DNA of 64,000 nt from a virus (IMGVR_UViG_3300031992_000005:288001-352000), one strand, 5' to 3'; numbered from the stretch's first letter, positions 4,504-63,987 are shown. The notes: generated by a model not told the origin, from the sequence alone. Translations and numbers: made by a program.

Positions 4504-5346
4504 ATGTCATTAATAGTTAGATTGAAAAGAAAGTTGTTTGCTGCTTGGAATGAAAATCTCAGAACCGTATACGAACATGCATTAGATAACCAGGATAAAG
4601 AAGCTGAAAGAGAATATAGGTCATTGTTAGAGGAGAGATTCCCTAAACAAACATCTGGTATAAAAGATACGAGGAGATTCGTTAAAGACGTAAAAGACTC
4701 TTTTAGAGACATAGATAAGGCAGCAAGAAAAAAGAATAAGCGACTACTCAAAGTGGCTAAAGCAGCTAAAATTGCAGGTATTGGAGGAGGAATTGCAGCT
4801 GGAGCGGGATTAGCATATGGCTTAAAGAAAGCTCATGATAATAAAAAAGCTTGGGAAGAAGAGAAAAAAGGAATAACGGATCCCAATAAAATAAATTCAC
4901 TGAAAGAGAGCAAAGATCAGAAAAAAAATAGACAACTGGGTGAAGGGGCTATTGTAACTGCAGGAACACTTGGTGGTGCATTAACAGGTGCAGCTATCGT
5001 AGGTAGACAAAAAGCTAGAGCAGATAAGCTATATGATAGAAAATTCGATATCTACGGAAAGAAGATGCTCGAACGACATAAAAAATTTGATAGTTATGCA
5101 AGATCTTCACCATATGGCGTTGATAGGATAATAGATGCTGACAGCAAATTTGTGAATAAGCTATCTCAAGATTGGCGAAGTAAAGGTCTAGCTCTTGATC
5201 GACTAAATAGAAAGATAGGTAAAAAAGCTCCTGGTAAAGTACTAAAAGCTGCAGGATTAGGTTTAGCTGGAGGTGCTGCATTGGCTACTATGTATGGTAT
5301 TAATCAAAAAGTTGCCAATGAAAAGAAAAACTCCACGAACAAATAA
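4504..5346 (+). CDS. Leader-bearing glycine-zipper protein, paralog 2
   Basis: 280-aa ORF starting MSLIVRLKRKLFA. Contains IAGIGGGIAAGAGLAYGLKKAHDNKKAWEEEKK. Shares near-identical nucleotide blocks with 3502-4488. Confidence 0.8.
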   Translation: MSLIVRLKRKLFAAWNENLRTVYEHALDNQDKEAEREYRSLLEERFPKQTSGIKDTRRFVKDVKDSFRDIDKAARKKNKRLLKVAKAAKIAGIGGGIAAGAGLAYGLKKAHDNKKAWEEEKKGITDPNKINSLKESKDQKKNRQLGEGAIVTAGTLGGALTGAAIVGRQKARADKLYDRKFDIYGKKMLERHKKFDSYARSSPYGVDRIIDADSKFVNKLSQDWRSKGLALDRLNRKIGKKAPGKVLKAAGLGLAGGAALATMYGINQKVANEKKNSTNK

Positions 5347-47000: not shown

Positions 47001-49652
47001 ATGGGTAGAGAGACTTCTACTACAGTTACCACAGTAATGAATGTTTTCTATGATATTATAGAAAAAATTAGAACAATAGGAGCAAATAACGCCAATACCT
47101 CTGGATACCAGTATGTTAGATTAAAGATAATCTCGGATAATAAAAGCAATCCTACAGTCATAGACCATTTTAAAGCATCTGACTTCTTCTTCCCAAGTAA
47201 AGAAGAAACAACACGTTACCCTACTAAGGTAGAGACCCTACAGCTCATTAGTTTTAGTGGTGATGCTATAGTAGATTTTAGTGGTTTGTTTAGTTACGGA
47301 CATTGGAATAGTCTAAATACGATCTATAGATTTGAATTTGAAACTACCAATACAAGCGGAAATAGTATTAGAGTAAATAATATTATGGGCTTAGACGGTC
47401 TATTCAATCTTGGATATCTTGAAGTAACCTTGCCTCCTTTAGAAGGAGGTATTTTGGACTCTTTTAGAGTAGATTTCGATTCTCCGTTAACAATTACCAG
47501 TAGATTGGATGGTTTAACTTATACAGGACAAACTTTTATTGATCTATATGGTTTTGTAGCTTGGGAAAATTACAGAGGCAAGACTGTAGATTTCTTTAGA
47601 AGAGAATATACTTCAAGTGGATACTCAGATTGGGATGAGGGTAACTTCACAATAAGAAAGTACATATCCTACGATAACTTTAAAAGTCTGTGTGGAATAC
47701 TATTTAACAGTAATTGTAATTGGACCGGATTTAGTAACCTATTTAGAAATTGTACAGTCGTGGCTAGTCCAGATCAGCACGTTGTTATAGAACTTACTGA
47801 TAAAGATACTAGTGAAGATGATAGTTTAAGCATGACGGGGGTTAAGTCAATTAATTCAATGTTTGATAATTTCCGTATCATCAGAAAACAACCTGGCTAC
47901 ACTATTACAAAGGAAGATTTAGTTGATAGCAATTATTTAGAAAGTGAATACGTAGAATTTAACTATGATAGACTATTAGGTATCTTTCCAAGCCTGACAA
48001 GTGCTGCTTTTGCGTTTAGAAACGTGAAATTTAAAAGAGCATTGCCAATTGATTTTTGGAGGAAAAGGAAAAAAACAACTGAAGACGTTTATATAAAAAT
48101 AGATGATAGTGGGTTGGATATATATCAAAGTCCTGATGAAAACTATTTTAATAATGAAGTTTTAGGAAGATATTTTAAAAAAGCCACGCTATACACGTAT
48201 AGTTATAACCTAGATTTAGAAAACCTACAGAGCTGTTTTTATAATACTAAGTGGTTTTATGGAATAGAAAATGGAGAGACTATTCAGGCTAAAAACTTTA
48301 ATCCAGAACAACTAAGTGATGTTCCTAAAAACTCAATAGTTATTGATTCTACTGGAGAAGTTATAGATGAGGTTGGCTACTACTATTATAAGTTGGCAAG
48401 TGGAAGTAACAATGCCGAAATTGGCGGCACTATTACAAAAATCTATTATTGGACACTTACAAAGCAAGTAAATGGTCTGGAATCATCTACGGAATTCTCT
48501 GACATAGCAGAATTAACTCCAGAATCTAATCCTGAGGGTATAGGAGAATATGTAGAAGAGTGTACAATAAACGGATCGGGAGACACTATTAAGAACTACT
48601 CAGTATCAAATACTGCTAACGCCATTAGTAGATCCTTCATTGCACCAGATATCCTTTATCCAATAAAACCTAACTGTTCACTTAGAAACACGTTCTATTC
48701 AGATGGTTCAGATTCAATGGAGGGATTGATTCCTAAAAATCTATTAAAAAATTCAACTTCACCTAATATTAACGGATTATTGACTAACCAATCCATTATT
48801 CCTAGGAAAATAGGCGTTCTTGAACAGACTGACTCGTCAAATCCTCCTAAAGTGGAAAGAGTTAGCTATTATACATTCGTTCCCGAGAACTTTACTCGAA
48901 TAACATCATTAGAGGGCGCATTTAAGTTTAAAATACTATTACCTAATAGTAGCACAGAAAGTGGTGATACTATTTCATACAGTAAATACTACATATTGCT
49001 GAATACTTCTTTTAAGAATAATAGGTCAAGTATTACAGCTTTCAGAAATCCTTTCCCAGAATACTGCATAGATGGTGACAATACAACGGTGGGACTCTGG
49101 AGAACTAGTACGAATGGATGGTATAACACTGCGAATACTTCATATGATAAAGTCCTCTACTACGGTTTAATGTATAACCCAGAATACGATACTAATGGTG
49201 TTTTGGTAGGAGGTTCGGAAGGTATTGATATTTCAACCAGTGGATTTAGAAATGCAACCTTCGACAATATGTTAACAGCTGGAGGAACGAGTAATAAAGG
49301 TAAAGGTACTGTAATAATGAGATACTTAACAGGTTATTTATTTAGTTATAATACAACACTAAACCAAATCAAGAGAGCTGCAACCAGTTCTTCTAGTTCG
49401 ACTCTTAATCCTATATTTGGTACTTTCTATCATTATCAGTATCAAAATTGTGAAAACTTTACTAACAAAGCACTAATTCTTCCAGGAATAACGGGACAGC
49501 CAGGAGCATTTAATAATAGTAACTTTATAGCATTCAGTTATGACTTTTTAGTACATAAATCACAATTACCTCAAGGAAATAAGAATAATTATGACGAGTT
49601 TATAAAAAGTTCTGACCCTAATGCAAAAGTCGTACTATATCCTCGAGATTAA
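41001..49652 (+). CDS. Giant tail protein (2883 aa) with CotH-like and leucine-rich-repeat-like regions
   Basis: CotH-like region at about 43240-45190: VKIQGSSTKGYHIKNYTLTLK...FTLKADVVDSSHSNN...FYVAFYDMDTCLGIDN...RIARVKEWLNNRLHLLDAYF. LRR-like region at about 45680-46560: LNLSNVNGSNNQYNIVDCLNLSKITI..., NCQNLNKINISD..., FRECTNITSIEFSNTGVYLDYDAFYSDSNLSTIDG. Confidence 0.5.
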   Translation: MKRPNKNSATNGNIVFDDDITMTGTNKAFGKDLHSAMENLWSRTAKLENYLKWIYKYGGVGGTGGGGETATSYTVYAELNHRKVVEDPTAFINLGSSGTFPLLIKISKPGGASYKVNCTFTDNTGSIINTINETLNLDNSYTLERVVNISKNGVLNIKVTDSIYNETTPLSTRYITDPYRFTGDLINNSGRAYSNEIFTSDILSNGLYLRLNYQISVATEVSYKLKVTTPKLTFNSEGFTAMEDLIVSNTEEGDYIIDIIQFLRKFDYGLTESNSGNYSISVELQTKIVGDLETNSYTPLKTPISFTIVPKTLYLLVQSTSGTLYQVEQEPDSVSTDDLFSPGSITFKVKPYFENVIGKSCTIDYKLGDEFEWQTISTNLRDTQQITIYSTRPGENSISFVLKYDNKKYPTQEQSNVGEGTYYFYIKNSTFDGGWWHQFEKNTDRPFYDDLNHYFKVTEWSPEFNPFNATFGRNPIKQTVNKSPVTLTNLTCPTGSDGFNTIVNIGIEYNTINEDGAPILKITAYDDTELTLYQNRITLGANSIEDDRLFIPKTDYSSFTGLNNTEDYHLISIVSRQVKKLGNTDNRGREVIIYIDGVIEACFKTFLYSPGTPSNNLTVKDISLYSVNANFNLFDIAYFSPIESKVSTEYYIPEDVTIYQYYLKYKETLLSKTLTEEEINLLTYYDNIDFNPENGDIFCSEDAMNNIARNLNVPVMAILVDDNKNGNYKDLLGGYYLESSTEELETKATLKWSGLKGKTSLTDISFPNRTISNTGSYIDWTSNIHFYVKIQGSSTKGYHIKNYTLTLKDDENLYIPLFSPNFKNNDTTTFLPEHSFTLKADVVDSSHSNNTSIGNFVNDITTKFKTSPTSVDDAFSGYIKNCLTGFPFLIFMKFIDPNKSPDAQDENYYYHGVYNFNLGRESEYNLGYKDYNVFCDSNGKSILEDAPDSGGFSFHMVTKSSSVVKNGVITAEIQGNSSFLDFSQFDESLLFQNDSVSDENVTTMFGKITDENPDVSYIRGENLQNQDARNILQRFVEKVTYAGGYVFTQLKKTFSDDGSAGVLYGYGSKPPQGYKAVGKIKVWNEDLGEIEEKTLPLNQVPNYRHQFIRTVSGITPKAGLTRPGTLNDLMDLVRKDENDPDAGIPLLDFDSVSEYYTICMAFGLIDSVQKNLTLKTWTADKESGLGTFYVAFYDMDTCLGIDNAGKKVNYTAFSDYWTKNESESDGTSTSETTSSGTVSYKTITPISATVYRDYSPSGGEYFDVASSYLFAIPKYATYIAGKLNLNASDSAFTEKITNWPRQLWEKWRSRRNPSDHKIGCLESADYFIKTYFSNNLGSVGIPLINANYRAKYLVQLYYSGDTTNSKDELGKFNGTRIARVKEWLNNRLHLLDAYFNIARGVNNPIMFYRECNEEIDGEMQTFYKYTSTEEDTSADHYMSEPTISEYTSATNPDVYINSDIFDKLSLQSSIPFVVTVRAKENSPLIITCANWTKRYLIGGNNYYQIPVPVSGTQAYRLLGSKNWTYMDSINGFHLDGTFYINTQYIDQLVGDDNSSEAKELTFDNSATDNILMPSLKTISLTSPKYKGTLKLVGTNYTNLGTIDLSNSRIGLNMQNTTCTELNLSNVNGSNNQYNIVDCLNLSKITIVSAYMSSLIIKPIHPDIITKNCETSFGKVTSSNVINLANITPTTSNNQNTPFGKTGSGFYLKNTHIREINISNTKINEDRSRIEIDGDDTLYSITIAGFSVVVIKNCQNLNKINISDPEAGIGGDKLRRLCIQNCGNAGTDLTINSTERGHLNLTDFSDLNFVNFRECTNITSIEFSNTGVYLDYDAFYSDSNLSTIDGKAYIIGTTTTGTRIRPTFYLCKNFKLTKSNGTTCCDLFVIEQAVSLNSTFSIGNSISKEGEGKITRTLAKTFIERIPTNNNITDITNMFCGNRIEYNETLLVSDIKSTKNYIDMSVFKKVTNVSGAFNYNLISAWHPKWFSFGADVDTINSFENYMGRETSTTVTTVMNVFYDIIEKIRTIGANNANTSGYQYVRLKIISDNKSNPTVIDHFKASDFFFPSKEETTRYPTKVETLQLISFSGDAIVDFSGLFSYGHWNSLNTIYRFEFETTNTSGNSIRVNNIMGLDGLFNLGYLEVTLPPLEGGILDSFRVDFDSPLTITSRLDGLTYTGQTFIDLYGFVAWENYRGKTVDFFRREYTSSGYSDWDEGNFTIRKYISYDNFKSLCGILFNSNCNWTGFSNLFRNCTVVASPDQHVVIELTDKDTSEDDSLSMTGVKSINSMFDNFRIIRKQPGYTITKEDLVDSNYLESEYVEFNYDRLLGIFPSLTSAAFAFRNVKFKRALPIDFWRKRKKTTEDVYIKIDDSGLDIYQSPDENYFNNEVLGRYFKKATLYTYSYNLDLENLQSCFYNTKWFYGIENGETIQAKNFNPEQLSDVPKNSIVIDSTGEVIDEVGYYYYKLASGSNNAEIGGTITKIYYWTLTKQVNGLESSTEFSDIAELTPESNPEGIGEYVEECTINGSGDTIKNYSVSNTANAISRSFIAPDILYPIKPNCSLRNTFYSDGSDSMEGLIPKNLLKNSTSPNINGLLTNQSIIPRKIGVLEQTDSSNPPKVERVSYYTFVPENFTRITSLEGAFKFKILLPNSSTESGDTISYSKYYILLNTSFKNNRSSITAFRNPFPEYCIDGDNTTVGLWRTSTNGWYNTANTSYDKVLYYGLMYNPEYDTNGVLVGGSEGIDISTSGFRNATFDNMLTAGGTSNKGKGTVIMRYLTGYLFSYNTTLNQIKRAATSSSSSTLNPIFGTFYHYQYQNCENFTNKALILPGITGQPGAFNNSNFIAFSYDFLVHKSQLPQGNKNNYDEFIKSSDPNAKVVLYPRD

Positions 49653-49671: not shown

Positions 49672-50763
49672 ATGCCAAGTTATATAGGAACAAATTTCGC
49701 ATATGATGCCAAAGACTTCCTAGATGACCGTATATCAAAGGCTCGCAGTAAGGCAGACTTGAAGAACTGGGACACTGATGTTCCAGAGGGATTTGAGATC
49801 TGTCTCTGCGAGTCCCCTGATACGGGAGGAGTCTGGTATTATTATGATTCAACAAAGAGCTTGGAAGAAACTGGGCATTGGATTCCTAGGGTATCTAGTA
49901 GCAGTGAGAATTACGTAAGTGATAATCAAGCTGCTAGTATTTCCCTAGTCCAATCCGTAGTTGATTCAAGTCTCTCAGATTTTAAAAGTAAACCAACGAT
50001 AAAGGATATTAAGGTTATTGGTACTAATCCAGTGGAAGTAGGAAGTACTGGGCCACAACAGAAATTACAATGGGCAATCGAATATTCTAAGCTAACCTGG
50101 AGTGCAGATACGTCTGGTACTGTTAGGTGGAAATTAGAGAAAGACGAAAGCTCTGATATACAGCCACAGTCTATTACAATTACAGAAAATGGAGTTGTTG
50201 CCGCTACCTTAGCAGAAAATAGTACTAGTTTCGCAACCACTACTTCTCCAAATTATTGGATAAATAATTTTAATCTTAATGGGAGTAGTACGTTAAAAAC
50301 AGGAGAAGTAAAAAGTTTCACCTATAACGTAAGTTATGTAATAAAAGACCTAGGTATTACACTATCTGGAGGAGCAACTTATTATGTAAGACTTAGAAGA
50401 TATCGTGGATTAGCTAAGGGAGATAGTTTAAGAGGTATAGTAGTAGGAAATACTTATGATTATTACAGTAGTAATGGCCCTTTTGTATATAACGTAAGCA
50501 AAAGCAGTGACCTTAATGAAGGATATAGCTCCTGGAATGTAACCTTTAATTGTAATGGTGGATATCACCCTTACTTTCTTATTCCTGTAGCTAATTATGG
50601 CAGTGTCATTCCAGAAAATACAAAAATGAATGTTGGTGGTTTTGACATGACTGATTTTACAGTAAAGAGCATCAATATAATTAATCAGCATGGAGTGACT
50701 GAGCCTTATTACCTACTATATCTAAACAACGAACAGAACGGTACTTTAACAATAAAATATTAA
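49672..50763 (+). CDS. Tail-fibre-like protein with shared N- and C-terminal modules
   Basis: 363-aa ORF. N-terminal FLDDRISKARSKADLKNWDTDVPEGFEICLCES..GGVWYYYDS...GHW. The C-terminal PYFLIPVANYGSVIPE...GGFDMTDFTVKSINIINQHGVTEPYYLLYL resembles the C-termini of the 34366 and 51353 products. Confidence 0.55.
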   Translation: MPSYIGTNFAYDAKDFLDDRISKARSKADLKNWDTDVPEGFEICLCESPDTGGVWYYYDSTKSLEETGHWIPRVSSSSENYVSDNQAASISLVQSVVDSSLSDFKSKPTIKDIKVIGTNPVEVGSTGPQQKLQWAIEYSKLTWSADTSGTVRWKLEKDESSDIQPQSITITENGVVAATLAENSTSFATTTSPNYWINNFNLNGSSTLKTGEVKSFTYNVSYVIKDLGITLSGGATYYVRLRRYRGLAKGDSLRGIVVGNTYDYYSSNGPFVYNVSKSSDLNEGYSSWNVTFNCNGGYHPYFLIPVANYGSVIPENTKMNVGGFDMTDFTVKSINIINQHGVTEPYYLLYLNNEQNGTLTIKY

Positions 50764-50766
50764 TTT

Positions 50767-51360
50767 ATGTTAGTAATTTTAGATCCAGCGCACGGAAGCA
50801 ATGTATCTGGTAAATGTAGTCCAGATAAGAAATTAAGAGAATATCTTTGGTCCAGAGAAATGCTGGGGAGAATAGAGAAGAGATTAAAAGCTGTTGGAAT
50901 TGATTCTGTCTGGGATTGGACAGGAACAACTGAACCTGGCCTGACAAAGAGATGTACCTTAGCTAATGCTATCGCTAAGAATCACTCGGGTAAATCAATC
51001 TTTATCTCTTTTCACGTTAATGCAGCAGGAAGTGATGGAAAATGGCATACAGGCAAAGGATGGGAAATTTATGTTTCCAATAATGCCAGCTCATCTTCCA
51101 AAAAGCTTGCTTCATATATAGCAAATGCTGCCAAAGCAACAGGTCTTAAGATAAGAACAGAAGATCCTGGCCGCTTATATAAAGTTGCTAGGTTTACTGT
51201 TCTGCAGAAAACTTCCATGCCAGCTGTTTTGGTTGAAAACTTATTCCAGGATAATAAGGAAGAAGTTGATTACCTATTAAGTGAAAAAGGAAAAAATACT
51301 CTAACAGAAATTGTAATTAAAGGAGTATGTGATTACTTTGGAGTAGAATATCATGAGTAA
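50767..51360 (+). CDS. N-acetylmuramoyl-L-alanine amidase (Amidase_3 family), endolysin candidate
   Basis: 197-aa ORF. LVILDPAHGSNVSGK, ISFHVNAAG and AVLVENLFQDNKEE match the Zn-ligand and fold motifs of MurNAc-LAA amidases. Confidence 0.8.
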   Translation: MLVILDPAHGSNVSGKCSPDKKLREYLWSREMLGRIEKRLKAVGIDSVWDWTGTTEPGLTKRCTLANAIAKNHSGKSIFISFHVNAAGSDGKWHTGKGWEIYVSNNASSSSKKLASYIANAAKATGLKIRTEDPGRLYKVARFTVLQKTSMPAVLVENLFQDNKEEVDYLLSEKGKNTLTEIVIKGVCDYFGVEYHE

Positions 51361-52282
51361 AACAATACAAGTTATAAGTCAAGGAGGAGTAGATATTTTT
51401 CCTGCTACGGTAGTTGATGGAGTTGGATTTGAGCCCGCTAGATGTTCATTATCCAAACTCCTCGACACCTATAATGTTTCAACTCTTTGGCCATTGGAGG
51501 AAGGTTATTATACAATAGGAACCGCAGTAACAGTTCTAGAGGATAACCTAGAATCTTCTCAAAAGATTCCTGGAACTAAAGTGGGATTCCTAAACTCTAA
51601 TGGCTCTTATGAAGAGTGGGAATATTTCGGCGGCAACTTTGCATTTACAAATACTAGTGGATGGAAACGAGTAGATTCTATGGTACTACAGGATCTCCTA
51701 GATACCGTGTATCCCTTAGAATCTACTATATCAGCATCAATTGACCTCGTTGGAGTAGGGGAATCTTTACAAGGAAGACTCTCTTGGTCTGTTAGTAGAG
51801 GAGGAGCTGATGTAAGTGGAGCCGCAGTGAAGAAATTAAATGGTGCCGTAGTAGATGAAACAGATGGAAAAAATTTAACACTCTTCTCTAATACTAATAA
51901 GACTGATGCATATACATTTTCTGCCACATATCAGGGAGTTGAAAGTACTAGTACAGTAGAAATAGCTTATGTACACAAAAGCTACGTAGGTTTAATTAAT
52001 GCAGATATTGAAGAGCCTACCGAAAACCAAGTAACAGGACTAGACAGCTATACTATAAAAGAAACAAACTTCTCAAGAACATTCCCTAACCTAAATTATC
52101 AGAAAGTATGTGCAGCATTTCCCGCATACCTAGGAGATGTAGAGTCTATAAAAGATGCCAATGGATTTGAGTACATTGACTCCTATACTAAAACAACTCT
52201 AGACATAGGCGGAATAACTTATAATGTCTATGTCCTAACTAATGCAACGACAATTACAAACTTTACACAAGTATGGCTCTAA
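51353..52282 (+). CDS. Fibre-module protein with shared C-terminal domain
   Basis: 309-aa ORF, overlap-coupled to its neighbours. Its C-terminal domain is paralogous to that of 34366-36045. Confidence 0.6.
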   Translation: MSKTIQVISQGGVDIFPATVVDGVGFEPARCSLSKLLDTYNVSTLWPLEEGYYTIGTAVTVLEDNLESSQKIPGTKVGFLNSNGSYEEWEYFGGNFAFTNTSGWKRVDSMVLQDLLDTVYPLESTISASIDLVGVGESLQGRLSWSVSRGGADVSGAAVKKLNGAVVDETDGKNLTLFSNTNKTDAYTFSATYQGVESTSTVEIAYVHKSYVGLINADIEEPTENQVTGLDSYTIKETNFSRTFPNLNYQKVCAAFPAYLGDVESIKDANGFEYIDSYTKTTLDIGGITYNVYVLTNATTITNFTQVWL

Positions 52283-53613
52283 AAATAGGTGATAATATAA
52301 GTTATCAAGGTAAACAACCCAATTTTTCCAGGGATACATTTACAGAGCTTCAAGAAATGGTAAGATTTCCTGAAACCTCCCTAGATGAAGGCCATATTTC
52401 TTTGTGCCTAGAAACTGGAAAACGTTATATCTTCTATTCCACGAATACGATAGATCCTGTTCTTGGAAGATGGAGATTAGTTGTTGACACTGCATTGGAC
52501 GCCACCTCTGAAAATCCTGTACAAAATAAAGTTATATATCAAAAATTTCAAGACCTAGAAACAAATACCAGCGATTCTCATACTGAGCTAGAGCAAAGGG
52601 TTATTGATAATGAATTAGTAAACTCTGCCAGCTTAAATGACCTAAATGATAGGCTGAATGATACCGAAGAAGTCTTAACTACTGCAATAAATGAAATTAA
52701 GTCGGACTTAGATACAGAATATACGATAAACGGTCATCCCCTGAATGAAAAATCTATAAATCTTACTGCAGAAGATATAGGACTTGGTAATTATGCTGAC
52801 TATACAAATCCCCTTGACTTACCTATTTCGAGAGCTACACAAGAGGCTCTTACTACAAAAGTTGATAAGGTAGAAGGAAGTAGATTAATTACAGAAACAG
52901 AAGCTACTCAACTTGCTAATCACCTAGAAGATAATAATAACCCTCACCAAGTTACAAAAAGTCAACTAGGTCTTGGCAGCTATCCAGAGAATCCACTAGA
53001 CCTTCCTATCTCAACTGCTACACAAAATGCTCTTAATGATAAACTTCCTAAGACTGCAAAAGTAAATGGTCACACTTTCTCCACCGATTCAATACCAGAG
53101 ATTACACTAAGTAAAGCTGATGTTGGCCTAGGTAGTGTTAATAATACCGCAGACCTAAATAAACCAGTGTCACTTGATACTCTGGCTGCTCTTGATAAAA
53201 AAGTTGATAAGGTAGAAGGTAGTAGATTATTAACCAGTGAAGAAGCTGAAATAATTGCTGGAATAGAAGATAACGAAAAAGTTACTGCTGCAGCATTAAT
53301 CGACTTAGAAAATAGGAAAGTTGATAAGGTAGATGGAGGTAGATTAATCAATGAAGAAGAAATAGCTAAGATAGCAGGTTTAGCTAAGAAAGAGAAAGTA
53401 ATTGCTGCCGCTTTGGTTGACCTAGAAGAGAAAAAAGTCGATAAAGTTGAGGGAAGTAGACTTATTAATGAAGACGAAATAGAAGAAATCGCCGGAATTA
53501 AGGATACTGAAAAAGTTGTAGCAAATGCAATCCTAGACCTTAATGAAAGACTAGTTGCTCAGGAAAGAATTCTACCCATTACACACGAAATGATAGATTA
53601 TATGATGCTATGA
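52273..53613 (+). CDS. Tail fibre protein with phage-tail-fibre repeats
   Basis: 446-aa ORF. Three GLG..(N)..DL.KP(I/V)S..T..AL motifs: IGLGNYADYTNPLDLPISRATQEAL, LGLGSYPENPLDLPISTATQNAL, VGLGSVNNTADLNKPVSLDTLAAL. Four KVDKVEGSRLI motifs. Confidence 0.8.
   Translation: MALKIGDNISYQGKQPNFSRDTFTELQEMVRFPETSLDEGHISLCLETGKRYIFYSTNTIDPVLGRWRLVVDTALDATSENPVQNKVIYQKFQDLETNTSDSHTELEQRVIDNELVNSASLNDLNDRLNDTEEVLTTAINEIKSDLDTEYTINGHPLNEKSINLTAEDIGLGNYADYTNPLDLPISRATQEALTTKVDKVEGSRLITETEATQLANHLEDNNNPHQVTKSQLGLGSYPENPLDLPISTATQNALNDKLPKTAKVNGHTFSTDSIPEITLSKADVGLGSVNNTADLNKPVSLDTLAALDKKVDKVEGSRLLTSEEAEIIAGIEDNEKVTAAALIDLENRKVDKVDGGRLINEEEIAKIAGLAKKEKVIAAALVDLEEKKVDKVEGSRLINEDEIEEIAGIKDTEKVVANAILDLNERLVAQERILPITHEMIDYMML
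53200..53553 (+). repeat. Three tandem 117-bp (39-aa) coding repeats inside the tail fibre gene
   Basis: The GTTGATAAGGTAGA-type unit starts at 53203, 53320 and 53437, exactly 117 nt apart. A more distant copy lies at 52861. Confidence 0.85.
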
Positions 53614-57078: not shown

Positions 57079-57088
57079 AAATTACTTG

Positions 57089-57120
57089 GGTAATCCTAGG
57101 GAAATTACTCTGGGATTACC
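57089..57120 (+). terminator. Stem-loop GGTAATCC(16-nt loop)GGATTACC
   Basis: Perfect 8-bp inverted repeat immediately after the 56794 gene. Confidence 0.4.
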
Positions 57121-57158: not shown

Positions 57159-57890
57159 ATGAAAACAGAAAAATTATTAATTGTACCAGATGTTCATGGA
57201 AGAACGTTTTGGAAAGAACCAGTTTACAAGTGGAATGGAGACATCGTATTTCTTGGCGATTATCTAGACCCTTATCCAGACGAAGATATTAGCTTCAATA
57301 CAGCTCTTCGCGGATTAAGAGATATAATTGAATTAAAAGAAGCAAATCCGAGTAGAATTACGCTTCTCTTAGGAAATCACGATATTCATTACATCTGGGA
57401 AGAAGCTCCAGTCAGCACAAGATTTTCGAGAATGTTCGAAGACGAAGTAGCTACTTTATTCAATGATTATCGTCCAGATTTTCAAGTAGCGAAGATGATT
57501 GAACAGGACGGCAAATTCTTTCTCCTTACTCATGCTGGTCTAGTCAAGGGCTGGTTTGATCAGAATGAATTGACTGTACCTGAGAAGACCGAGATAGAAG
57601 ATATGCTAAATAGGATGGCAGAGACTAGTAAGGGAAAAGCGATGCTCAGTCAAGTAGGTTATAGTAGATGGGGAGACTCTCCGTTTGGAGGACCAATGTG
57701 GGCAGATTTCTTTGAAGATCACCTGGATTATCCTATCATACCTGATATATATCAGATTGTAGGTCATACGGGTAGTGTTTATGGATATGACGAACAGGCT
57801 TGTATGAAAAAGAACATTGCCTGCATTGACAGGAGAAAAGCGTATATATTAGAAGGAGGAAAATTAAAAAATGCTACTGGAGAAAACTGA
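57159..57890 (+). CDS. Serine/threonine protein phosphatase-family metallophosphoesterase (lambda PP / ApaH-like)
   Basis: Contains LLIVPDVHGR (DxHG), VFLGDYLDPYPD (GDxxD), LLLGNHDIHY (GNHD), LTHAG and VGHTGS. The ORF track starts at GTG 57135. The ATG at 57159 (MKTEKLLIVPDVHG) is the more plausible start. Confidence 0.85.
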   Translation: MKTEKLLIVPDVHGRTFWKEPVYKWNGDIVFLGDYLDPYPDEDISFNTALRGLRDIIELKEANPSRITLLLGNHDIHYIWEEAPVSTRFSRMFEDEVATLFNDYRPDFQVAKMIEQDGKFFLLTHAGLVKGWFDQNELTVPEKTEIEDMLNRMAETSKGKAMLSQVGYSRWGDSPFGGPMWADFFEDHLDYPIIPDIYQIVGHTGSVYGYDEQACMKKNIACIDRRKAYILEGGKLKNATGEN

Positions 57891-58131
57891 AGGATGTGTA
57901 TGTTGGGGTAGGTATGTAGATGATAAATCCCTCGAAGAATTATCAGAAGAAGAGAAAAATAATTTACTTCAAGTCTTAAAAGATCAATTAACTTTAAGCG
58001 ACTTAAATGAAGTATTTGACTTAATCTTAGATAATCATTATACAGATTACGAATCCGACGACAAACCATGTGAATGCTGCGGAGATTACGTATGCACATG
58101 GAAACTTGAAATAAAAAACCTAGGGAATTAA
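57871..58131 (+). CDS. Small acidic protein with CxC / CxCCxxxxC cysteine clusters
   Basis: 86-aa ORF overlapping the phosphatase 3' end by 20 nt. Cysteine clusters are GCVCWG and PCECCGDYVC. Confidence 0.55.
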   Translation: MLLEKTEGCVCWGRYVDDKSLEELSEEEKNNLLQVLKDQLTLSDLNEVFDLILDNHYTDYESDDKPCECCGDYVCTWKLEIKNLGN

Positions 58132-58149
58132 TCCCTAGGTAATTTTTTT
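58118..58149. terminator. Bidirectional terminator hairpin between convergent genes
   Basis: ACCTAGGGA (58118-58126) pairs with TCCCTAGGT (58132-58140) around a 5-nt loop. Followed by AATTTTTTT on the plus strand, with an A-run upstream. Both convergent ORFs end inside or next to the hairpin. Confidence 0.7.
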
Positions 58150-58757
58150 AATCTTCCTTTAACATAAATAATCATTCCGTCATTTTCGGCTAAACTATCT
58201 CTCTTTTCAATAAATTTTGTAGGTAAATTAGAAATAGTTCCCAAGAACTTCGGACAATAGCACTGAAGAAATCTTATAAGTGGTGGAGTATACTCATTCA
58301 CTTCCCTACCCACATCATGAATATACATAGACAATACACAACCATTATATCTCGACATAGGGAATTGAAAATCTATATAAGGTAAATGCTCCTTACCACC
58401 AGTAACTTCACTTTTGTAATAAATCCTATCAGTACAACAACTAGTTATAGTATTTTCCGCAATATTAATAACAATTGGTTTCTCTATCGTACTATGGGGC
58501 ATGAAGAGCAATAATTCAAATTTAAGCTTATGAATAGAAACATAAAATTCTGAACTCTTATCATAGATTATAGTAGCGCCTAATTTAATTATTCTCATCA
58601 AGATATCATCAGTTGAAACTGCAATTCTATCTTCCGTAAGGAGAAACCAATCCATTGATTCTAGGAATTTCTCTAATCCTAATATATCATTGTCAGTTAA
58701 TTTACGGCTAACTACATATGTCTTTTCTATTTTAGCCAAGTTTACCCTACTTAACAT
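58128..58757 (-). CDS. Family-B paralog 1 (B1), function unknown
   Basis: The ORF is open to 58811. The ATG at 58757 gives MLSRVNLAKIEKTYVVS, which aligns with the N-termini of the other B members. Shared motif WFLLTEDRIAVSTDDI. Confidence 0.65.
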   Translation of the reverse strand: MLSRVNLAKIEKTYVVSRKLTDNDILGLEKFLESMDWFLLTEDRIAVSTDDILMRIIKLGATIIYDKSSEFYVSIHKLKFELLLFMPHSTIEKPIVINIAENTITSCCTDRIYYKSEVTGGKEHLPYIDFQFPMSRYNGCVLSMYIHDVGREVNEYTPPLIRFLQCYCPKFLGTISNLPTKFIEKRDSLAENDGMIIYVKGRLKKLPRD

Positions 58758-58794
58758 ATTCTTACACATATGTAGAGAATATGTAACACTAACC

Positions 58795-59406
58795 TTAAAT
58801 GACGAACTCATTGCAACCTCCTCTAAAATATATTCTAAACTGTTCTGGAATTATAGGAGAATGTGCTAGGATTACATTATAACACTTACTCTTCAAGAAA
58901 TTAGGACATACCTTATATAGCATACTAAGTATACCTAAACAGGTAAAACTATACTTTTCCCTTATTTGATTATAATCAGAGTAACCATCAACAAAATAAT
59001 ACTCTGCTTTTACACCACTATCAATTCCAGTATGATGTAAGAACCAATAATCACCAAAGCCGTCATCCTTAAAAAATACTCTGGGAAATTGTTCCTTATA
59101 TCCTTCAGTATCTAAATACCAGATATCTGAAAGTATATCATCTAAGAGACTAACTTCTGGAGTAACATAATATGTTTTTGTAGAAGTCAGGAATATAAAA
59201 TTCCCTGGCATCCAGTCAAGCCGATTAGCCTGACATAACCAATCATCCACATTTATTGCCACTTTATCATCCTTGTAGATAAACCACTTGATATCTTTAG
59301 ATGTTAAGTGCTCCGTTAACTTAAATATATCTTGGAACTCAGTATTATAAAATGCAGTAGTTACAAAATATACTTCCTGAATATCTGCCAAAAGTAATTC
59401 TATCAT
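58795..59406 (-). CDS. Family-B paralog 2 (B2), function unknown
   Basis: 203-aa ORF with EVYFVTTAFYN...KWFIYKDDKVAINVDDW. ATGA overlap with B3. Confidence 0.75.
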   Translation of the reverse strand: MIELLLADIQEVYFVTTAFYNTEFQDIFKLTEHLTSKDIKWFIYKDDKVAINVDDWLCQANRLDWMPGNFIFLTSTKTYYVTPEVSLLDDILSDIWYLDTEGYKEQFPRVFFKDDGFGDYWFLHHTGIDSGVKAEYYFVDGYSDYNQIREKYSFTCLGILSMLYKVCPNFLKSKCYNVILAHSPIIPEQFRIYFRGGCNEFVI

Positions 59407-60044
59407 AGTTCTATTTCTTCTCCATCAAATATCGCTTCTACATCCTTTGTGAAGATTTCTTGACTTAATCCAAACAAAGAGGCCGTCAACCTTGATGCTA
59501 TATAAGCATAATCATCTGGCAATTCATCTGAATTTAAGTCCTGGTGCCTACATATAACTTGTTTAGTATACCCATCACCTACTTCCATAAAAGATCGTAT
59601 CTTAAAATGTTCATCATTGAACAAAGAAACATTTCTTGATGGCACAGATACATAGGTCTTTTCCATCTTAGAAAAATCTGACATAACATGGATTTCTTCG
59701 ACACTGCTTTTAGGATCCTCTTTATGAATTAAATCATAAAGATTTTTCCAAATGTATTCACCCTGATAATATTTTCCACTAATCCCAATAACTAATTGAA
59801 TAGGTCCACAAATATCCCAAATATATCTGGACTTTTCAGAAAGTGAACTGATTAATTTATAGTTTCTTAACCGAGTAATATCACCTGCTGTAATAGCAAC
59901 TCTATCACTCTTACTCAAGAACCACCTAGCACCAACAAGATCAAGTGCATCACACCTGTAAGTTAATGCACCGTAATCTCTATACCTTTGAAGTAAGAAA
60001 TAAGTTTCTATCTCTTCTTTTGCTCTAAAGTTTATCATTATCAT
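59403..60044 (-). CDS. Family-B paralog 3 (B3), function unknown
   Basis: 213-aa ORF with ETYFLLQRYRD...RWFLSKSDRVAITAGDI. Confidence 0.75.
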   Translation of the reverse strand: MIMINFRAKEEIETYFLLQRYRDYGALTYRCDALDLVGARWFLSKSDRVAITAGDITRLRNYKLISSLSEKSRYIWDICGPIQLVIGISGKYYQGEYIWKNLYDLIHKEDPKSSVEEIHVMSDFSKMEKTYVSVPSRNVSLFNDEHFKIRSFMEVGDGYTKQVICRHQDLNSDELPDDYAYIASRLTASLFGLSQEIFTKDVEAIFDGEEIEL

Positions 60045-60561
60045 GATGTAATGGGTTTACTAAATCTAATAATTCAAAGAAATTAAAAATATTTAAAGGT
60101 AATGAACTGGCAGGAATCGTGATTAGAGGATACGATGATGTATAATCAGCTCTCACAGCAGTATCCGATATCCTATTCTCTAGGTATACTCGATACTCAT
60201 ATAATAACGAGATTTGACAACCAATATAATCCTGTTTCGCAAAAAAGTTATTTATATCAAGATTAGTATGAACTAACTTTTCCTCTCCATTAGTACTAAT
60301 TAGGATAAGGTGTCGTATATATACACTTTTAATTAGTAAACTTTGAATTATATCTGGGATTATTGCCTTCAACTGTATATAGTGAATCGCAGAAATCATG
60401 ATAACATCCGGATCATATTCAATTCCACCTGAATAAGGAATACCTAATTTCTCCAATTCCATGGCGAAATTAAACTGATGTTCATCCTTATCTTTGCCAT
60501 GAAATCTCATTTCAATAAACGAATTTCTTCTATGTTTATCTAAAATAATTTCTTCTTCCAT
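60025..60561 (-). CDS. Family-A paralog 1 (A1), function unknown
   Basis: 178-aa ORF with DKHRRNSFIEMRFHGKDKDEHQFNFAMELEKLGIPYSGGIEYDPDVIMISAIHYIQLK. Confidence 0.75.
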   Translation of the reverse strand: MEEEIILDKHRRNSFIEMRFHGKDKDEHQFNFAMELEKLGIPYSGGIEYDPDVIMISAIHYIQLKAIIPDIIQSLLIKSVYIRHLILISTNGEEKLVHTNLDINNFFAKQDYIGCQISLLYEYRVYLENRISDTAVRADYTSSYPLITIPASSLPLNIFNFFELLDLVNPLHHDNDKL

Positions 60562-61130
60562 AGTCTATACCCTTCTCGTCTTTTCATGTACGATTTATAA
60601 AACTCAGTGTCTAGTATACCTAATCTATACATACTTAAGAAAGCATAGACATCCATATTTGTCTCTACACTATTAAAGATCGTGTCTGGAGTTATGGCAG
60701 CCTTAAGTTCCTGACCAACCTCTCGATATATAACAGTTGCCTTGTTATTACTAATATCTACCCAATAAGAAGTTACTACATTTAGATCTACTATTATAAA
60801 CTTACCTGTTGCACGATATGCACTAATGAAAAAATCCCAATCTACAACTTCGCTTTCATCATCCTTCAAGTAAAAATGTTCAACTTTTACATCCAAAGGA
60901 ATTTTCTTATACTCTGGATATATACTACATAACTGTATATAATTAACCATAGATATAACTATAGCATCTGGATTATATACAATTCCGCCTGAATAAGAAA
61001 TTCCCAATTTCTCTAAGTCCTCTACCAGACCTAATTGCATGACATCTTTACTTTTTCCCGTAAATATAAATCTAATATAGTAAGGCCTTCTAAATTTATC
61101 TATAAGGATACTTCCTATAGATTCAGGCAT
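60540..61130 (-). CDS. Family-A paralog 2 (A2), function unknown
   Basis: The ORF is open to 61157. The ATG at 61130 forms a TAATG overlap with the A3 stop and gives MPESIGSILIDKFRRPYYIRFIF...LEKLGISYSGGIVYNPDAIVISMVNYIQL. Confidence 0.7.
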   Translation of the reverse strand: MPESIGSILIDKFRRPYYIRFIFTGKSKDVMQLGLVEDLEKLGISYSGGIVYNPDAIVISMVNYIQLCSIYPEYKKIPLDVKVEHFYLKDDESEVVDWDFFISAYRATGKFIIVDLNVVTSYWVDISNNKATVIYREVGQELKAAITPDTIFNSVETNMDVYAFLSMYRLGILDTEFYKSYMKRREGYRLWKKKLF

Positions 61131-61729
61131 TAATAAGTATTTTTCTGCTCTATCCATTCTTCACCTAAGATATCAAGGTTTAATAGATCTCGATAAACTT
61201 TCTCAAATGTTACTCTCATTGAGAATATACGTAAATTGTTGTGAACTTTAATTATCTCAGACTTACGAAAATCATCCTCGTAATACTTAATAATATATCT
61301 TCCTGCGCATGCTCCCCAAAGATAAACCCTAAACGTTACTCTAACAGTTTTATTATCCTTAGTTCCAAGTTTAATTGATTGACTAATTTCAATAAAACAT
61401 TCATCTGCAAAATAATTTCCCAGACTACATGAAAGTCTAAAAGGTATCTCAACATTGTTCACTAGGTCTATCTTACAGTAACTAATATCTACTGTTAAAG
61501 CAGGAGAGCTTAAGATCATTAATTTATATTTAGGTAACAGTTCTCTAAGTTGAATATAATTCACCGTAGATAACATAATAGTGTCTGGATCTTCATCAAT
61601 TCCATTTGAGTACCCAATTCCTAATTTCTCTAAGTCACCTACAAATGAAAGTTGAGCGGGATCTTTACACTCACCACTAAACTTTAGCTTAACATAAGAA
61701 TTTCTCCTACAACTATCTAATTGTACCAT
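61130..61729 (-). CDS. Family-A paralog 3 (A3), function unknown
   Basis: 199-aa ORF with SCRRNSYVKLKFSGECKDPAQLSFVGDLEKLGIGYSNGIDEDPDTIMLSTVNYIQLR. Confidence 0.75.
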   Translation of the reverse strand: MVQLDSCRRNSYVKLKFSGECKDPAQLSFVGDLEKLGIGYSNGIDEDPDTIMLSTVNYIQLRELLPKYKLMILSSPALTVDISYCKIDLVNNVEIPFRLSCSLGNYFADECFIEISQSIKLGTKDNKTVRVTFRVYLWGACAGRYIIKYYEDDFRKSEIIKVHNNLRIFSMRVTFEKVYRDLLNLDILGEEWIEQKNTY

Positions 61730-62298
61730 ACATATCTTTCATGTATTATTTCTGAAAATTTATCGCATAATACGTCAAATCTCAGAAGATCACTTAAAAT
61801 AGAAAAAGGCAACTCCTCAATATGTTCTGGTAAAATCTGATCAACATATTTTACACCTGTATCACCACCTTTTCTCAGAATATGCTTAGATTTACCCTTA
61901 CTTAAGTCAATCCAATATGAGTCTATCTCTCCTTCATCACAAATAATATAATTCTGCAATGCTTTGTAACGTCTTAATTTACTTTCCAACTTAAAAGGAA
62001 CCTCAACGTTATTGATATAATCGATAGAACAAAACCCTAATATTGAAAAATCACCCCACAACTTCGTACGATAGCATTGAACTAGCTCTCTTATCTGAAG
62101 ATAATGAACCGTAGATAACATAATAGTATTCGGATCGTAAACAATGCCCCCTGAATAGGGTATACTATACTTTTCCAGGACTCCAGCAAAGTATAGTTGA
62201 TTCTCCTCCTTCTTAAATTTCAACTTAATATAAGAATTTCTCTTAAACTGATCTATTAACACGTAATTATTATTCCCAACATTAATTGCAGCAGTCAT
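61717..62298 (-). CDS. Family-A paralog 4 (A4), function unknown
   Basis: 193-aa ORF with DQFKRNSYIKLKFKKEENQLYFAGVLEKYSIPYSGGIVYDPNTIMLSTVHYLQIR. Confidence 0.75.
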   Translation of the reverse strand: MTAAINVGNNNYVLIDQFKRNSYIKLKFKKEENQLYFAGVLEKYSIPYSGGIVYDPNTIMLSTVHYLQIRELVQCYRTKLWGDFSILGFCSIDYINNVEVPFKLESKLRRYKALQNYIICDEGEIDSYWIDLSKGKSKHILRKGGDTGVKYVDQILPEHIEELPFSILSDLLRFDVLCDKFSEIIHERYVWYN

Positions 62299-62920
62299 TG
62301 TAAACTATCTCGTAATTAAACTTAATGGGTATATCTCTTACACGTCCATTTAAATAATTAGACCCAAGTATATCTAGGTGAACCTTTGCCTGCTCGAACC
62401 CAAGCTTGTTATTTTCATTAGCATTAAATTCAGCCAACTTTCGTGTACTTCCTCCTTCATACGAAAAGAAAATATCGTCTGTCAAAGTTATAATAAAATT
62501 TTCTTTGATATATTTATAATTAATTATATCTCGAATACTATAATATTCAATTGATCTTATAGATTCATCAGGTAACGATAAATTACGAGTTAGATCTAAA
62601 GATAGCTTACCTTTTTGTTGATTTGCTATAACACGTAATAGTCCCTCCTCCGCAGAAGGATAACTTAGGTAACCCTTACCTCTAAAATCTATCAATAACT
62701 CCCTATTACACAGGGGTAATGGTAAATTTCCCCAAAGATAAGGATCACTTATGTATTTATGTGTAGGTATTAATATATACTTTTCATCCCTCGATAAACT
62801 CCAGGGGAACTGATAAATATCAAACTCTTCTGTAATTGCTATTAACCGAGGATAATTATTTTTAGTTTCAATTGCAAAAAATGACTCTAAAATTTCTTCT
62901 CGTTTTAATTCTACTACCAT
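62282..62920 (-). CDS. Family-B paralog 4 (B4, most divergent), first gene of the minus-strand operon
   Basis: 212-aa ORF with ESFFAIETKNN...PWSLSRDEKYILIPTHKYI, aligning with the B-family N-terminal pattern. Confidence 0.65.
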   Translation of the reverse strand: MVVELKREEILESFFAIETKNNYPRLIAITEEFDIYQFPWSLSRDEKYILIPTHKYISDPYLWGNLPLPLCNRELLIDFRGKGYLSYPSAEEGLLRVIANQQKGKLSLDLTRNLSLPDESIRSIEYYSIRDIINYKYIKENFIITLTDDIFFSYEGGSTRKLAEFNANENNKLGFEQAKVHLDILGSNYLNGRVRDIPIKFNYEIVYNDCCN

Positions 62921-62952
62921 AAATATTATAAATAATTAACATAAATAAGGGA

Positions 62953-63987
62953 ATGAAACCCTTACTACTGTACTATAAATTTCAAGCTATTATGTTAAAA
63001 TCTACAGAACCAAAGTATTCCTATGGCGATATTTTTATTAAGCCAGCAGTACTCAGTGACGTCAAGCATAGAATTGATTGTCACGCTTACACTAGTGAAG
63101 GATCTCTCCCTATTTTTACAGCACCTATGGATACTGTAGTTGGGAAGAACTCCTTTAACATTTGGAAAGAAAATAAGATTATTCCCATTTATCCAAGAAC
63201 TATTTCTTATTCTGAAAGAATTCGCTTTATGGAAAATGGTGACTGGACTAGTTTTGGGTTAGATGAATTTGTACAACTAACCACGAGCTATAATAAAGAA
63301 CTGAAAGGAAAGATTCTAATTGAAATGGCTAATGGTCACCTGGAAGATCTTTATAAAATTGCAGGTGAAGCAAAAGAAAAGTTTCCTAACCTAACTTTAA
63401 TGGTAGGAAATATAGGAAATGCTGAAACTTACAACATAGCCTGTGATTGTGAGATTGATTATATCAGACTTGGTATTGGCGGTGGATCTGGATGTATTAC
63501 TGCGACACAAACTGGTATACATTATCCAATGGCAAGCTTAATACATGAAGCAGCAAGTAGAAAAATGATGAGGTTACAAGGTTTTCGTACAAAAATCATA
63601 GCCGACGGAGGAATTAGGAGCTATAAAGATATCTGCGTAGCTCTTGCCTTAGGTGCGGATTATGTAATGATTGGCGGATTATTATGCGGATTAAAAGAAT
63701 CTGAAGCACCAATCATTGAAAACGAAGATGGATCCCTCTCAAAGAAATTCTATGGCATGGCATCTAGAGAAGGACAGACTGCTATGTATGGATCAAAAAT
63801 AAAAACAGTTGAAGGAAAATCTAAACTTGTACCTATAACAGGAACTATTCCTGGATGGGTTGAGAATGCTACTGATTACATTAGATCTATGATGTCTTAT
63901 ATTGGGGCAAAAAACTTAGAGGAAATATATGAAAAGGCAGAATGTATAATAGGATCACAGGATACGCTCAACCGAATTAATAAGTAA
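62953..63987 (+). CDS. GMP reductase / IMP dehydrogenase-family (TIM-barrel, no CBS insert) enzyme
   Basis: Contains IFTAPMDTVV, LGIGGGSGCITATQTG (catalytic Cys loop), IIADGGIRSYKDICVALALGADYVMIGG and FYGMAS. About 330-344 aa without a CBS subdomain, which fits GuaC-type enzymes. An alternative start at ATG 62992 (MLKSTEPKYSYGDIFIKP) aligns better with known N-termini. Confidence 0.7.
   Translation: MKPLLLYYKFQAIMLKSTEPKYSYGDIFIKPAVLSDVKHRIDCHAYTSEGSLPIFTAPMDTVVGKNSFNIWKENKIIPIYPRTISYSERIRFMENGDWTSFGLDEFVQLTTSYNKELKGKILIEMANGHLEDLYKIAGEAKEKFPNLTLMVGNIGNAETYNIACDCEIDYIRLGIGGGSGCITATQTGIHYPMASLIHEAASRKMMRLQGFRTKIIADGGIRSYKDICVALALGADYVMIGGLLCGLKESEAPIIENEDGSLSKKFYGMASREGQTAMYGSKIKTVEGKSKLVPITGTIPGWVENATDYIRSMMSYIGAKNLEEIYEKAECIIGSQDTLNRINK

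Follow-up and report, generated by a model that had tools for sequence, protein, structure and literature searches.

What are eight small, overlapping genes doing on the strand opposite to their surroundings in a large phage? The question is raised by a 64,000-nucleotide stretch of viral DNA (IMGVR_UViG_3300031992_000005:288001-352000, hereafter the window), in which an operon of eight minus-strand genes, g8 to g1, occupies positions 58128-62920. An earlier note, drawn up without database searches, had described two interleaved paralog families in the order B-A-A-A-A-B-B-B and had placed them among host-takeover, anti-defence or immunity-type gene sets. We find that the locus is a single polycistronic operon, inherited vertically, of a large uncultured phage (at least 185 kb), with four family A genes and four genes that carry, with differing certainty, a B-type N-terminal module. 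As to function, we lean tentatively towards non-structural host-interaction factors, acting in host takeover or counter-defence, in which a common docking module is joined to a diverged specificity region. This reading is favoured because the operon is a separate opposite-strand unit, because its neighbours are metabolic, helicase-like and ClpB-like, and because its proteins evolve in a modular way.

The eight open reading frames (ORFs) have exactly the coordinates and strand first assigned to them; the size range of 178-213 amino acids (aa) given at the time has to be widened to 178-227 aa. The first gene of the operon, g8 (62282-62920, 212 aa), is a marginal member by its B N-module. Four family A paralogs follow: g7 (61717-62298, 193 aa), which has a mosaic C-region; g6 (61130-61729, 199 aa), which served as the AlphaFold target; g5 (60540-61157, 205 aa), which has an alternative start at codon 10 (61130); and g4 (60025-60561, 178 aa). 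The series ends with two core carriers of the B N-module, g3 (59403-60044, 213 aa, or 211 aa from codon 3, the version called by gene callers on related contigs) and g2 (58795-59406, 203 aa), and with the last gene, g1 (58128-58811, 227 aa), in which the B N-module comes after an 18-aa extension and is linked mainly via g2. All seven junctions overlap as had been claimed, by 17, 13, 28, 22, 20, 4 and 17 nucleotides (nt) from g8 to g1; the g3/g2 overlap is an ATGA at 59403-59406, and the TAATG at 61130 is the junction given by the alternative g5 start. A Shine-Dalgarno sequence is recognisable for g1, where it is strong (AGAGGAGG), and for g2, g4 and g5; for g8 there is none, and its ATG is preceded, 4 nt upstream, by a TATAAT. 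The 64-kb window has a negative GC skew at 58-62 kb alone, and no credible minus-strand genes were found in it outside the operon. The statement that the operon runs opposite to everything else therefore holds for the window; it does not hold for the genome, which has further minus-strand blocks just past the window.

BLASTP E-values were scaled to a nominal database size of 1e8 and Smith-Waterman z-scores were taken against shuffles. All six pairs of family A (g4-g7) gave BLASTP E-values of 1e-13 to 2e-23, z = 25-40 and hhalign P = 1e-17 to 4e-23, so that the proposed family is borne out by three methods far beyond chance and, on sequence comparison, g4-g7 are beyond doubt true paralogs. Conservation sits in the first ~75-85 residues, in which 22 columns are invariant across the four paralogs. 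This N-module (~75 aa, α/β) holds the near-invariant loop LEKLGIPYSGGIxYDPD, and the β-rich body and C-terminal helices beyond it are strongly diverged. In the C-regions similarity is detectable for g5-g7 (z=10) and g6-g7 (z=9) only, and the C-region of g4 has no detectable similarity to those of the other A members. Because it persists in just these two pairs, g7 looks mosaic, and the A paralogs may have undergone recombination or gene conversion in the past. By position, residues 87-118 of g7 resemble g6 and residues 111-145 resemble g5. No additional paralogs were found inside the window; the ORF at 49672-50763, a recurring weak match (0.8 bits, at an internal position), was rejected as spurious.

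Similarity among the B proteins is restricted to an N-terminal module of ~55 aa with the motif E-x-Y-F ... W-F-x-x-x-D-+-V-A-I, and their C-terminal regions have no detectable mutual similarity. Pairwise z-scores against shuffles are 8.2 for g1-g2, 4.8 for g2-g3 and 4.7 for g3-g8, and fall to 3.3 for g1-g3, 2.1 for g2-g8 and -0.3 for g1-g8; hhalign gives P = 6e-4 (g1-g2), 4e-3 (g2-g3), 7e-3 (g1-g3) and 0.04 (g3-g8), always at equivalent positions. Hidden Markov model searches that left out one group at a time, run against all 385 six-frame segments of the window, recovered g3 with E=1.5e-8 and g2 with E=1.6e-5; recovery was poor for g1 (E=0.056) and g8 (E=0.51). A fifth B-module protein, p284 (284 aa), is encoded ~5 kb past the end of the window on the same strand as the operon (L015:122-976, also L002:1869-2723 and L019:14884-15738). 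Aligned with g3 (z=4.8) and with g8 (z=4.5) it is in register, and the search from which it was left out recovers it with E=4.6e-4. Because the similarity ends at ~55 aa and the C-regions are unrelated, B is best described as a shared N-terminal module. At the level of sequence the module is solid for g2, g3 and p284 and reaches g1 through g2, and the membership of g8 is only suggestive; the full paralog family that had been proposed does not stand. Taking a tandem multigene family to be at least three adjacent genes with significant mutual similarity, A forms one through all six of its pairs and B through g1-g2-g3 only. Homology between A and B is ruled out (hhalign probability <1%). The p284 gene belongs to a second same-strand cluster, in which it shares 22 nt with a 241-aa gene.

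How widely do these genes occur? With the A profile, a word-indexed search of 5.8 billion proteins returned 15 clusters, all from the same operon, and an exhaustive HMMER search over 1.84 billion representatives returned five members of the clade and one fragment. P0033, a marginal match of the exhaustive search, proved to be a mis-called fragment of a g7 ortholog and is no independent relative. The B alignment gave 16 clusters in the word-indexed search, all of them orthologs from the same operon; a large-database search with the B N-module had no match among the just 22 candidates that it collected and is uninformative. Restriction to a single lineage is thus seen by exhaustive search for A and by word-indexed search for B. 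Among GenBank phages there was no megablast match to the operon plus 25 kb of the window and no tblastn match to g6, g3 or p284, and a search of IMG/VR for distant syntenic relatives, anchored on the IMPDH-like and Metallophos genes that flank the locus, gave the same contig only. The layout is identical on every contig with these genes: the IMPDH-like gene, g8 to g1, an 86-aa gene and the Metallophos gene. The gene order B-A-A-A-A-B-B-B and the copy number are fixed in all sampled lineages, so that of the family distribution and copy-number variation that it had seemed worth looking for, the first turned out to be clade-restricted and the second did not appear. The phage is large and possibly a jumbo phage, because one of the operon-bearing contigs is of 185 kb and another is in the 0.2-1 Mb class. 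At least one contig of that class encodes the identical IMPDH-like protein and most likely belongs to the same phage.

Orthologs correspond 1:1 by position and are 64-100% identical in amino-acid sequence (71-99% for g8), and paralogs are 30-47% identical; because positional orthologs are far closer to each other than paralogs are, the duplications predate the sampled divergence. No gene gain or loss was seen among the sampled lineages, which are shallow (synonymous divergence, dS, at most ~0.8). The overlap lengths at the A-A junctions differ between lineages (13 to 56, 28 to 10 and 22 to 14 nt). Across three lineages the ratio of nonsynonymous to synonymous divergence (dN/dS) is 0.16-0.48 for the eight operon genes (0.31-0.35 for g8), compared with 0.07-0.13 for the IMPDH-like gene, 0.07 for the Metallophos gene and 0.18-0.19 for the 86-aa gene. 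The eight genes are real, are under purifying but relaxed selection and change more quickly than the genes around them. For the N-modules the pooled dN is 0.063 in A and 0.048 in B, for the C-regions 0.172 in A and 0.120 in B; the N-modules thus evolve ~2.5 times more slowly, as would fit a constant module with a freer region attached. In no segment does dN/dS come near 1. Diversification of the paralogs in an arms-race sense is not seen: copy number and order are fixed in all sampled lineages, and purifying selection acts throughout.

That the ORFs are spurious, or are decaying non-functional duplicates, is scarcely credible. The idea could draw on the failure to find homologs outside the clade and on the AT-richness of the region, and it is effectively refuted by the selection analysis, with dN/dS of 0.16-0.48 in all eight genes in three lineages. 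Reading frames, starts and order are also conserved, the GC skew is consistent with the strand, and AlphaFold reached a predicted template modelling score (pTM) of 0.71 from a 19-sequence alignment.

Seven consecutive overlapping junctions, a strict number and order of genes, 1:1 orthology and the 4 + 4 composition would also be expected of A-type and B-type subunits of one hetero-oligomeric assembly, in which the overlaps enforce near-equimolar synthesis and each paralog takes a distinct position; every member is under purifying selection, and the N-modules show the conservation that interfaces would have. We consider such an assembly unlikely. A fifth B-module protein, p284, is encoded elsewhere, and the 4:4 composition may for that reason be coincidental; the B membership of g8 is marginal; unrelated C-regions are unusual in pseudo-symmetric assemblies; and the A-A overlap lengths vary between lineages. 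For host-interaction factors, the slow N-modules and fast C-regions would correspond to docking and to specificity, respectively.

Are the eight genes transcribed as one unit? The two boundaries that had been proposed, a hairpin at 58118 and a 32-nt divergent spacer at 62921-62952, are both present, and together with the overlaps they bear out a single compact operon with a terminator. The predicted bidirectional intrinsic terminator spans 58118-58150. Its hairpin (58118-58140) has a stem of 9 bp with five GC pairs (ACCTAGGGA/TCCCTAGGT), a 5-nt loop and A/T-runs on both sides, so that T-runs follow on both strands, and both g1 and the convergent 86-aa gene (orf86) have stop codons that overlap it. 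Five lineages have the hairpin unchanged. In the most divergent of the lineages (L013, ~1040; L014, ~1410) the A-run has an extra A, and g1 ends in RLKKIT followed by the stop codon instead of in RLKKLPRD; because the hairpin is identical despite this altered reading frame, selection acts on the DNA or RNA element itself and not on the codons that overlap it. Stem-loop, T-runs, convergent 3' ends and conservation are all as in intrinsic bidirectional terminators, and termination is predicted here. The 86-aa gene (57871-58131, plus strand) is Cys-rich (C-x-C, C-x-C-C-x4-C) and ends inside the terminator loop.

At the other end, the spacer separates g8 from the divergent IMPDH-like gene and contains the TATAAT at 62925-62930 on the minus strand. 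The 160 nt around the divergent starts (-100 to +60) are 99% conserved across lineages, and the only two variable positions among them fall inside the TATAAT. A conserved hairpin (62944-62966, core AAGGG-AATGAAA-CCCTT) takes in both the ribosome-binding site of the IMPDH-like gene (AAGGGA, in the stem) and its ATG (in the loop). The hairpin is 20-42 nt upstream of where the operon would have its 5' end, and it may regulate translation or belong to an unusual promoter. A scan for sigma-70 promoters found sites no commoner than in shuffled sequence, and Rfam and tRNA scans of the region and window found nothing.

The ends of short contigs bear on the transcript. In a set from three Joint Genome Institute (JGI) samples (3300024337, 3300024342 and 3300024345) and three SRA runs (SRR7633495, SRR9006805 and SRR16020858; contigs L004-L007, L012 and L016; ends at 62924, 62914, 58103, 57155, 56801 and 55573), contigs from all three JGI samples begin at the same base, 62924, and one Logan contig begins at 62914. 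One JGI contig runs on for 15 nt after the terminator hairpin and stops there. Contigs of the set also end 4 nt before the ATG of the Metallophos gene, with TAAAAT at -12 to -7, and 2 nt before the ATG at 55575. Within the window the set has ten ends, of which nine are at landmarks (gene starts or the terminator), compared with none of the nine ends of metagenome-labelled contigs, all nine of which are mid-gene. This suggests that the short contigs are RNA-derived and that the operon is a discrete near-leaderless transcript, with leaders of 2-4 nt for several units of the phage; 62924 may be the transcription start of the operon. Two further short-contig ends just outside the window also look like landmarks. 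The Metallophos transcript, from its apparent start, has an inverted repeat (GGTAATCC...GGATTACC, 57088-57120) at a distance of 35-67 nt upstream.

What kind of proteins does the operon encode? None of the eight has a transmembrane segment (maximum 19-residue Kyte-Doolittle hydropathy <1.5), and seven of the eight have an isoelectric point of 4.7-6.4; the products are predicted to be soluble and mostly mildly acidic, at ~200 aa. The AlphaFold2 model of g6 is of moderate confidence (predicted local distance difference test, pLDDT, 72; pTM 0.71; 19-sequence alignment) and shows a β-α-(conserved loop)-β-α N-module, a seven-stranded β region and two C-terminal helices; its best partial alignments are to generic ferredoxin-like domains, over the N-terminal ~75 residues. 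Scans of the eight proteins against Pfam, PHROGs, NCBIfam and PADLOC gave sub-threshold noise only, Pfam scans of 19 A and 18 B members one by one at E<=10 gave no consistent weak match, and the A and B alignments, searched against PDB sequence profiles, had no match with E below 0.1. With these searches, Foldseek against PDB and BFVD and the GenBank phages taken together, the families are as unrecognised as they had been by eye. The A and B modules are new in sequence, and the modelled A fold is also new as far as these searches tell. The lack of matches is not distinctive, because nearly every protein of this phage lacks a family match: the only nameable ones are a peptidase domain (in a 1864-aa protein), a tail-fibre-like domain, Amidase_3, two Metallophos domains and the IMPDH-like protein.

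A role in defence or immunity finds no counterpart in the libraries searched. None of the eight proteins matched the PADLOC-DB defence models at E<=0.1. Of the immunity-protein families (SUKH / SMI1_KNR4 and Imm), SMI1_KNR4 is touched by one of the 18 B members at E=1.2 and by no A member, and no toxin-like neighbour is present beside the operon. Family A resembles no anti-defence protein in the general libraries (Pfam, PHROGs, PDB profiles and Foldseek PDB/BFVD), no dedicated anti-defence library having been searched.

The divergent IMPDH/GMP-reductase-like gene is next to g8, the genes for a 702-aa helicase-like protein and for a ClpB-like AAA+ protein are also near, and the strand of the operon is opposite to that of the tail, lysis and structural block. 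The non-structural character that had been ascribed to the region is supported by these metabolic, helicase-like and ClpB-like neighbours. The 702-aa protein (L019:11963-14071, beyond the window) has VVDEFQ and SATP motifs by eye and no Pfam or PHROGs match, and L019:18136-21035, also beyond the window, encodes a STIV_B116-like protein and the 889-aa ClpB-like AAA+ protein.

The operon is also only 4.5 kb from a tail-fibre-like gene (52273-53613) and an amidase, and two virion-related explanations have to be weighed. The products could be head or ejection proteins packaged in the virion, the N-modules being capsid-targeting or scaffold-binding and the variable C-regions being cargo delivered with the DNA; such cargo could itself be anti-defence. 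Soluble, acidic proteins with a conserved N-terminus and a variable body would suit packaging, as would the closeness of the tail-fibre-like gene and amidase, and there is precedent in SPN3US, phiKZ and the T4 internal proteins (PMC5694885). We regard packaging as possible but doubtful. The strand is opposite to that of the whole structural block, and the operon is its own unit flanked by metabolic and helicase-like genes; no member has a Pfam or PHROGs match to PF12699 or to other head-protein families; no protease-site motif after the N-modules is conserved in the A or B alignments (L/I-R-E is present in g6 and g7 and absent from g4 and g5); and copy number is fixed here, whereas in the SPN3US and phiKZ families it varies between relatives. 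The second explanation, that the proteins are host-range or assembly accessories such as tail-fibre chaperones or adaptors, with variable C-regions that match different fibres or receptors, strikes us as improbable. The C-terminal regions are indeed variable, and the tail-fibre-like gene at 52273-53613 and the pair 34366-36045/51353-52282 are near; the strand and transcription unit differ from those of the tail genes, no similarity to tail, fibre or chaperone families was found in PHROGs or Pfam, and there are eight genes for few candidate fibres.

Several results weigh against the preferred reading of host-interaction factors and against the transcript that goes with it. No homolog of known function was found for any operon protein. 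Foldseek found no match for the g6 model in PDB or BFVD at E<=1e-3, and the AlphaFold model of g2 (18-sequence alignment) was unusable (pLDDT 37), the B fold not being predictable; of the all-against-all profile and structure comparison that the earlier note had called for, the A half is significant with no fold match, and the B half is weak with no usable model. The operon adjoins tail-fibre and lysis genes, which would suit a virion-associated role. Copy-number variation and positive selection, both common in arms-race gene sets, are absent; their absence is weak evidence, because the sampled lineages are shallow (dS at most ~0.8). The RNA origin of the short contigs is putative; the assembly graph could instead have broken at the polymorphic TATAAT, because the shared contig start directly follows this TATAAT, in which the spacer has its only two variable bases. 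A canonical sigma-70 start at 62924 would also need more distance than a TATAAT at -6 to -1 allows. The role in host takeover, anti-defence or immunity that was first suggested is plausible, and an alternative with equal precedent is given by the tandem paralog families of small head or ejection proteins in giant-phage virions (PMC5694885).

How would host-interaction factors of this kind work? Transcription would start at or just upstream of the g8 ATG, leaving the first gene near-leaderless, downstream genes would be translated by coupling via the overlaps, and transcription would halt at the bidirectional hairpin. With low confidence, we suppose that the constant N-module might dock each protein onto a common partner or onto one another, and that the fast-diverging C-regions might give distinct, non-redundant target specificities. 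A bolder version, which we think distinctly unlikely, is a modular effector platform: the N-modules, as two new folds, would bring eight proteins with different tips together in a hetero-oligomer or on a host hub, so that several host functions or defences are neutralised at once, and the near-leaderless transcript would perhaps come from a hairpin-associated non-canonical promoter.

If the A and B modules are docking domains for host-directed effectors, two new folds would be added to the tools that phages use against their hosts, and interleaved modular paralogs in one coupled operon would be a new organisational principle. Near-leaderless transcript starts, if confirmed, would be a clue to the organisation of transcription in this phage. 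The value is limited in that the families are confined to one narrowly sampled clade and the genome is similarly opaque. The phage and its host are uncultured; the locus is easy to synthesise and test because it is compact (4.8 kb), cleanly bounded and conserved, with products that are apparently soluble.

Some features elsewhere in the window, all on the plus strand, may be recorded here. In the structural region, 3502-4488 and 4504-5346 encode adjacent paralogs (36% identity over 329 aa, E=7e-22) with no family match. The proteins of 34366-36045 and 51353-52282 have a common C-terminal segment of ~84 aa (32% identity, E=2e-10), which may be a tail-fibre or receptor-binding module. There are four giant ORFs: 6896-12490 (1864 aa), with a lysin/peptidase domain at residues ~1000-1150; 26390-33559 (2389 aa); 36049-40995 (1648 aa), with a weak Metallophos domain; and 41001-49652 (2883 aa). 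The 2389-aa and 2883-aa proteins have no Pfam match.

Does the operon resemble any known system? SPN3US encodes head proteins of 18-33 kDa and unknown function in tandem paralog families, of which family B has 20 members (gp138-154), and the inner-body proteins of phiKZ are paralogs (PMC5694885). As in these families, tandem, small (~20-30 kDa), lineage-restricted soluble paralogs are found in a large phage; they differ in that the operon proteins have no sequence match to them, PF12699 included, that the genes are opposite to the structural strand, that the copy number is fixed, and that two unrelated N-modules are interleaved in a single operon. The T4 internal proteins carry an N-terminal capsid-targeting sequence (PMC5694885). 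Like IPI, IPII and IPIII of T4, the operon has a shared N-terminal element, divergent bodies and clustered genes; the T4 targeting sequence is of ~10 residues and is cleaved at L/I-x-E, whereas the operon modules are of 55-85 aa, lack a conserved cleavage motif and are probably folded domains. IPI of T4 has an anti-restriction function.

The Bro-N/KilA-N families of phages and large DNA viruses also have a conserved N-terminal domain, variable C-regions and several copies per genome. This architecture is like that of the operon proteins, and the B motif W-F-x-x-x-D-x-V-A superficially recalls W-F-x-A-K-D-V of Bro-N; membership was rejected, as hmmscan of all 37 A and B members (19 and 18, respectively) at E<=10 listed neither Bro-N (PF02498) nor KilA-N (PF04383). 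The early takeover module of Bacillus phage SPO1 is a compact block of small phage-specific soluble proteins, with uncharacterised biochemistry, whose transcription is separate from that of the late genes. The operon is like it in being compact and in encoding small phage-specific soluble proteins, with separate transcription predicted from the layout. Takeover modules are not known to consist of paralog families, and they have numerous promoters of their own; the operon, in contrast, is paralog-built. Bacillus phage G has ~35 copies of a zinc ribbon, a lineage-specific expansion in a jumbo phage (PMC7824862). The operon resembles this expansion as a clade-specific multigene family with a function inferred from context alone; the expanded domain of phage G is recognisable as a zinc ribbon, whereas neither operon module is recognisable. 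In kind, then, the locus belongs with the lineage-specific tandem multigene families already known from large phages (PMC5694885; PMC7824862), to which it adds two modules that are new in sequence.

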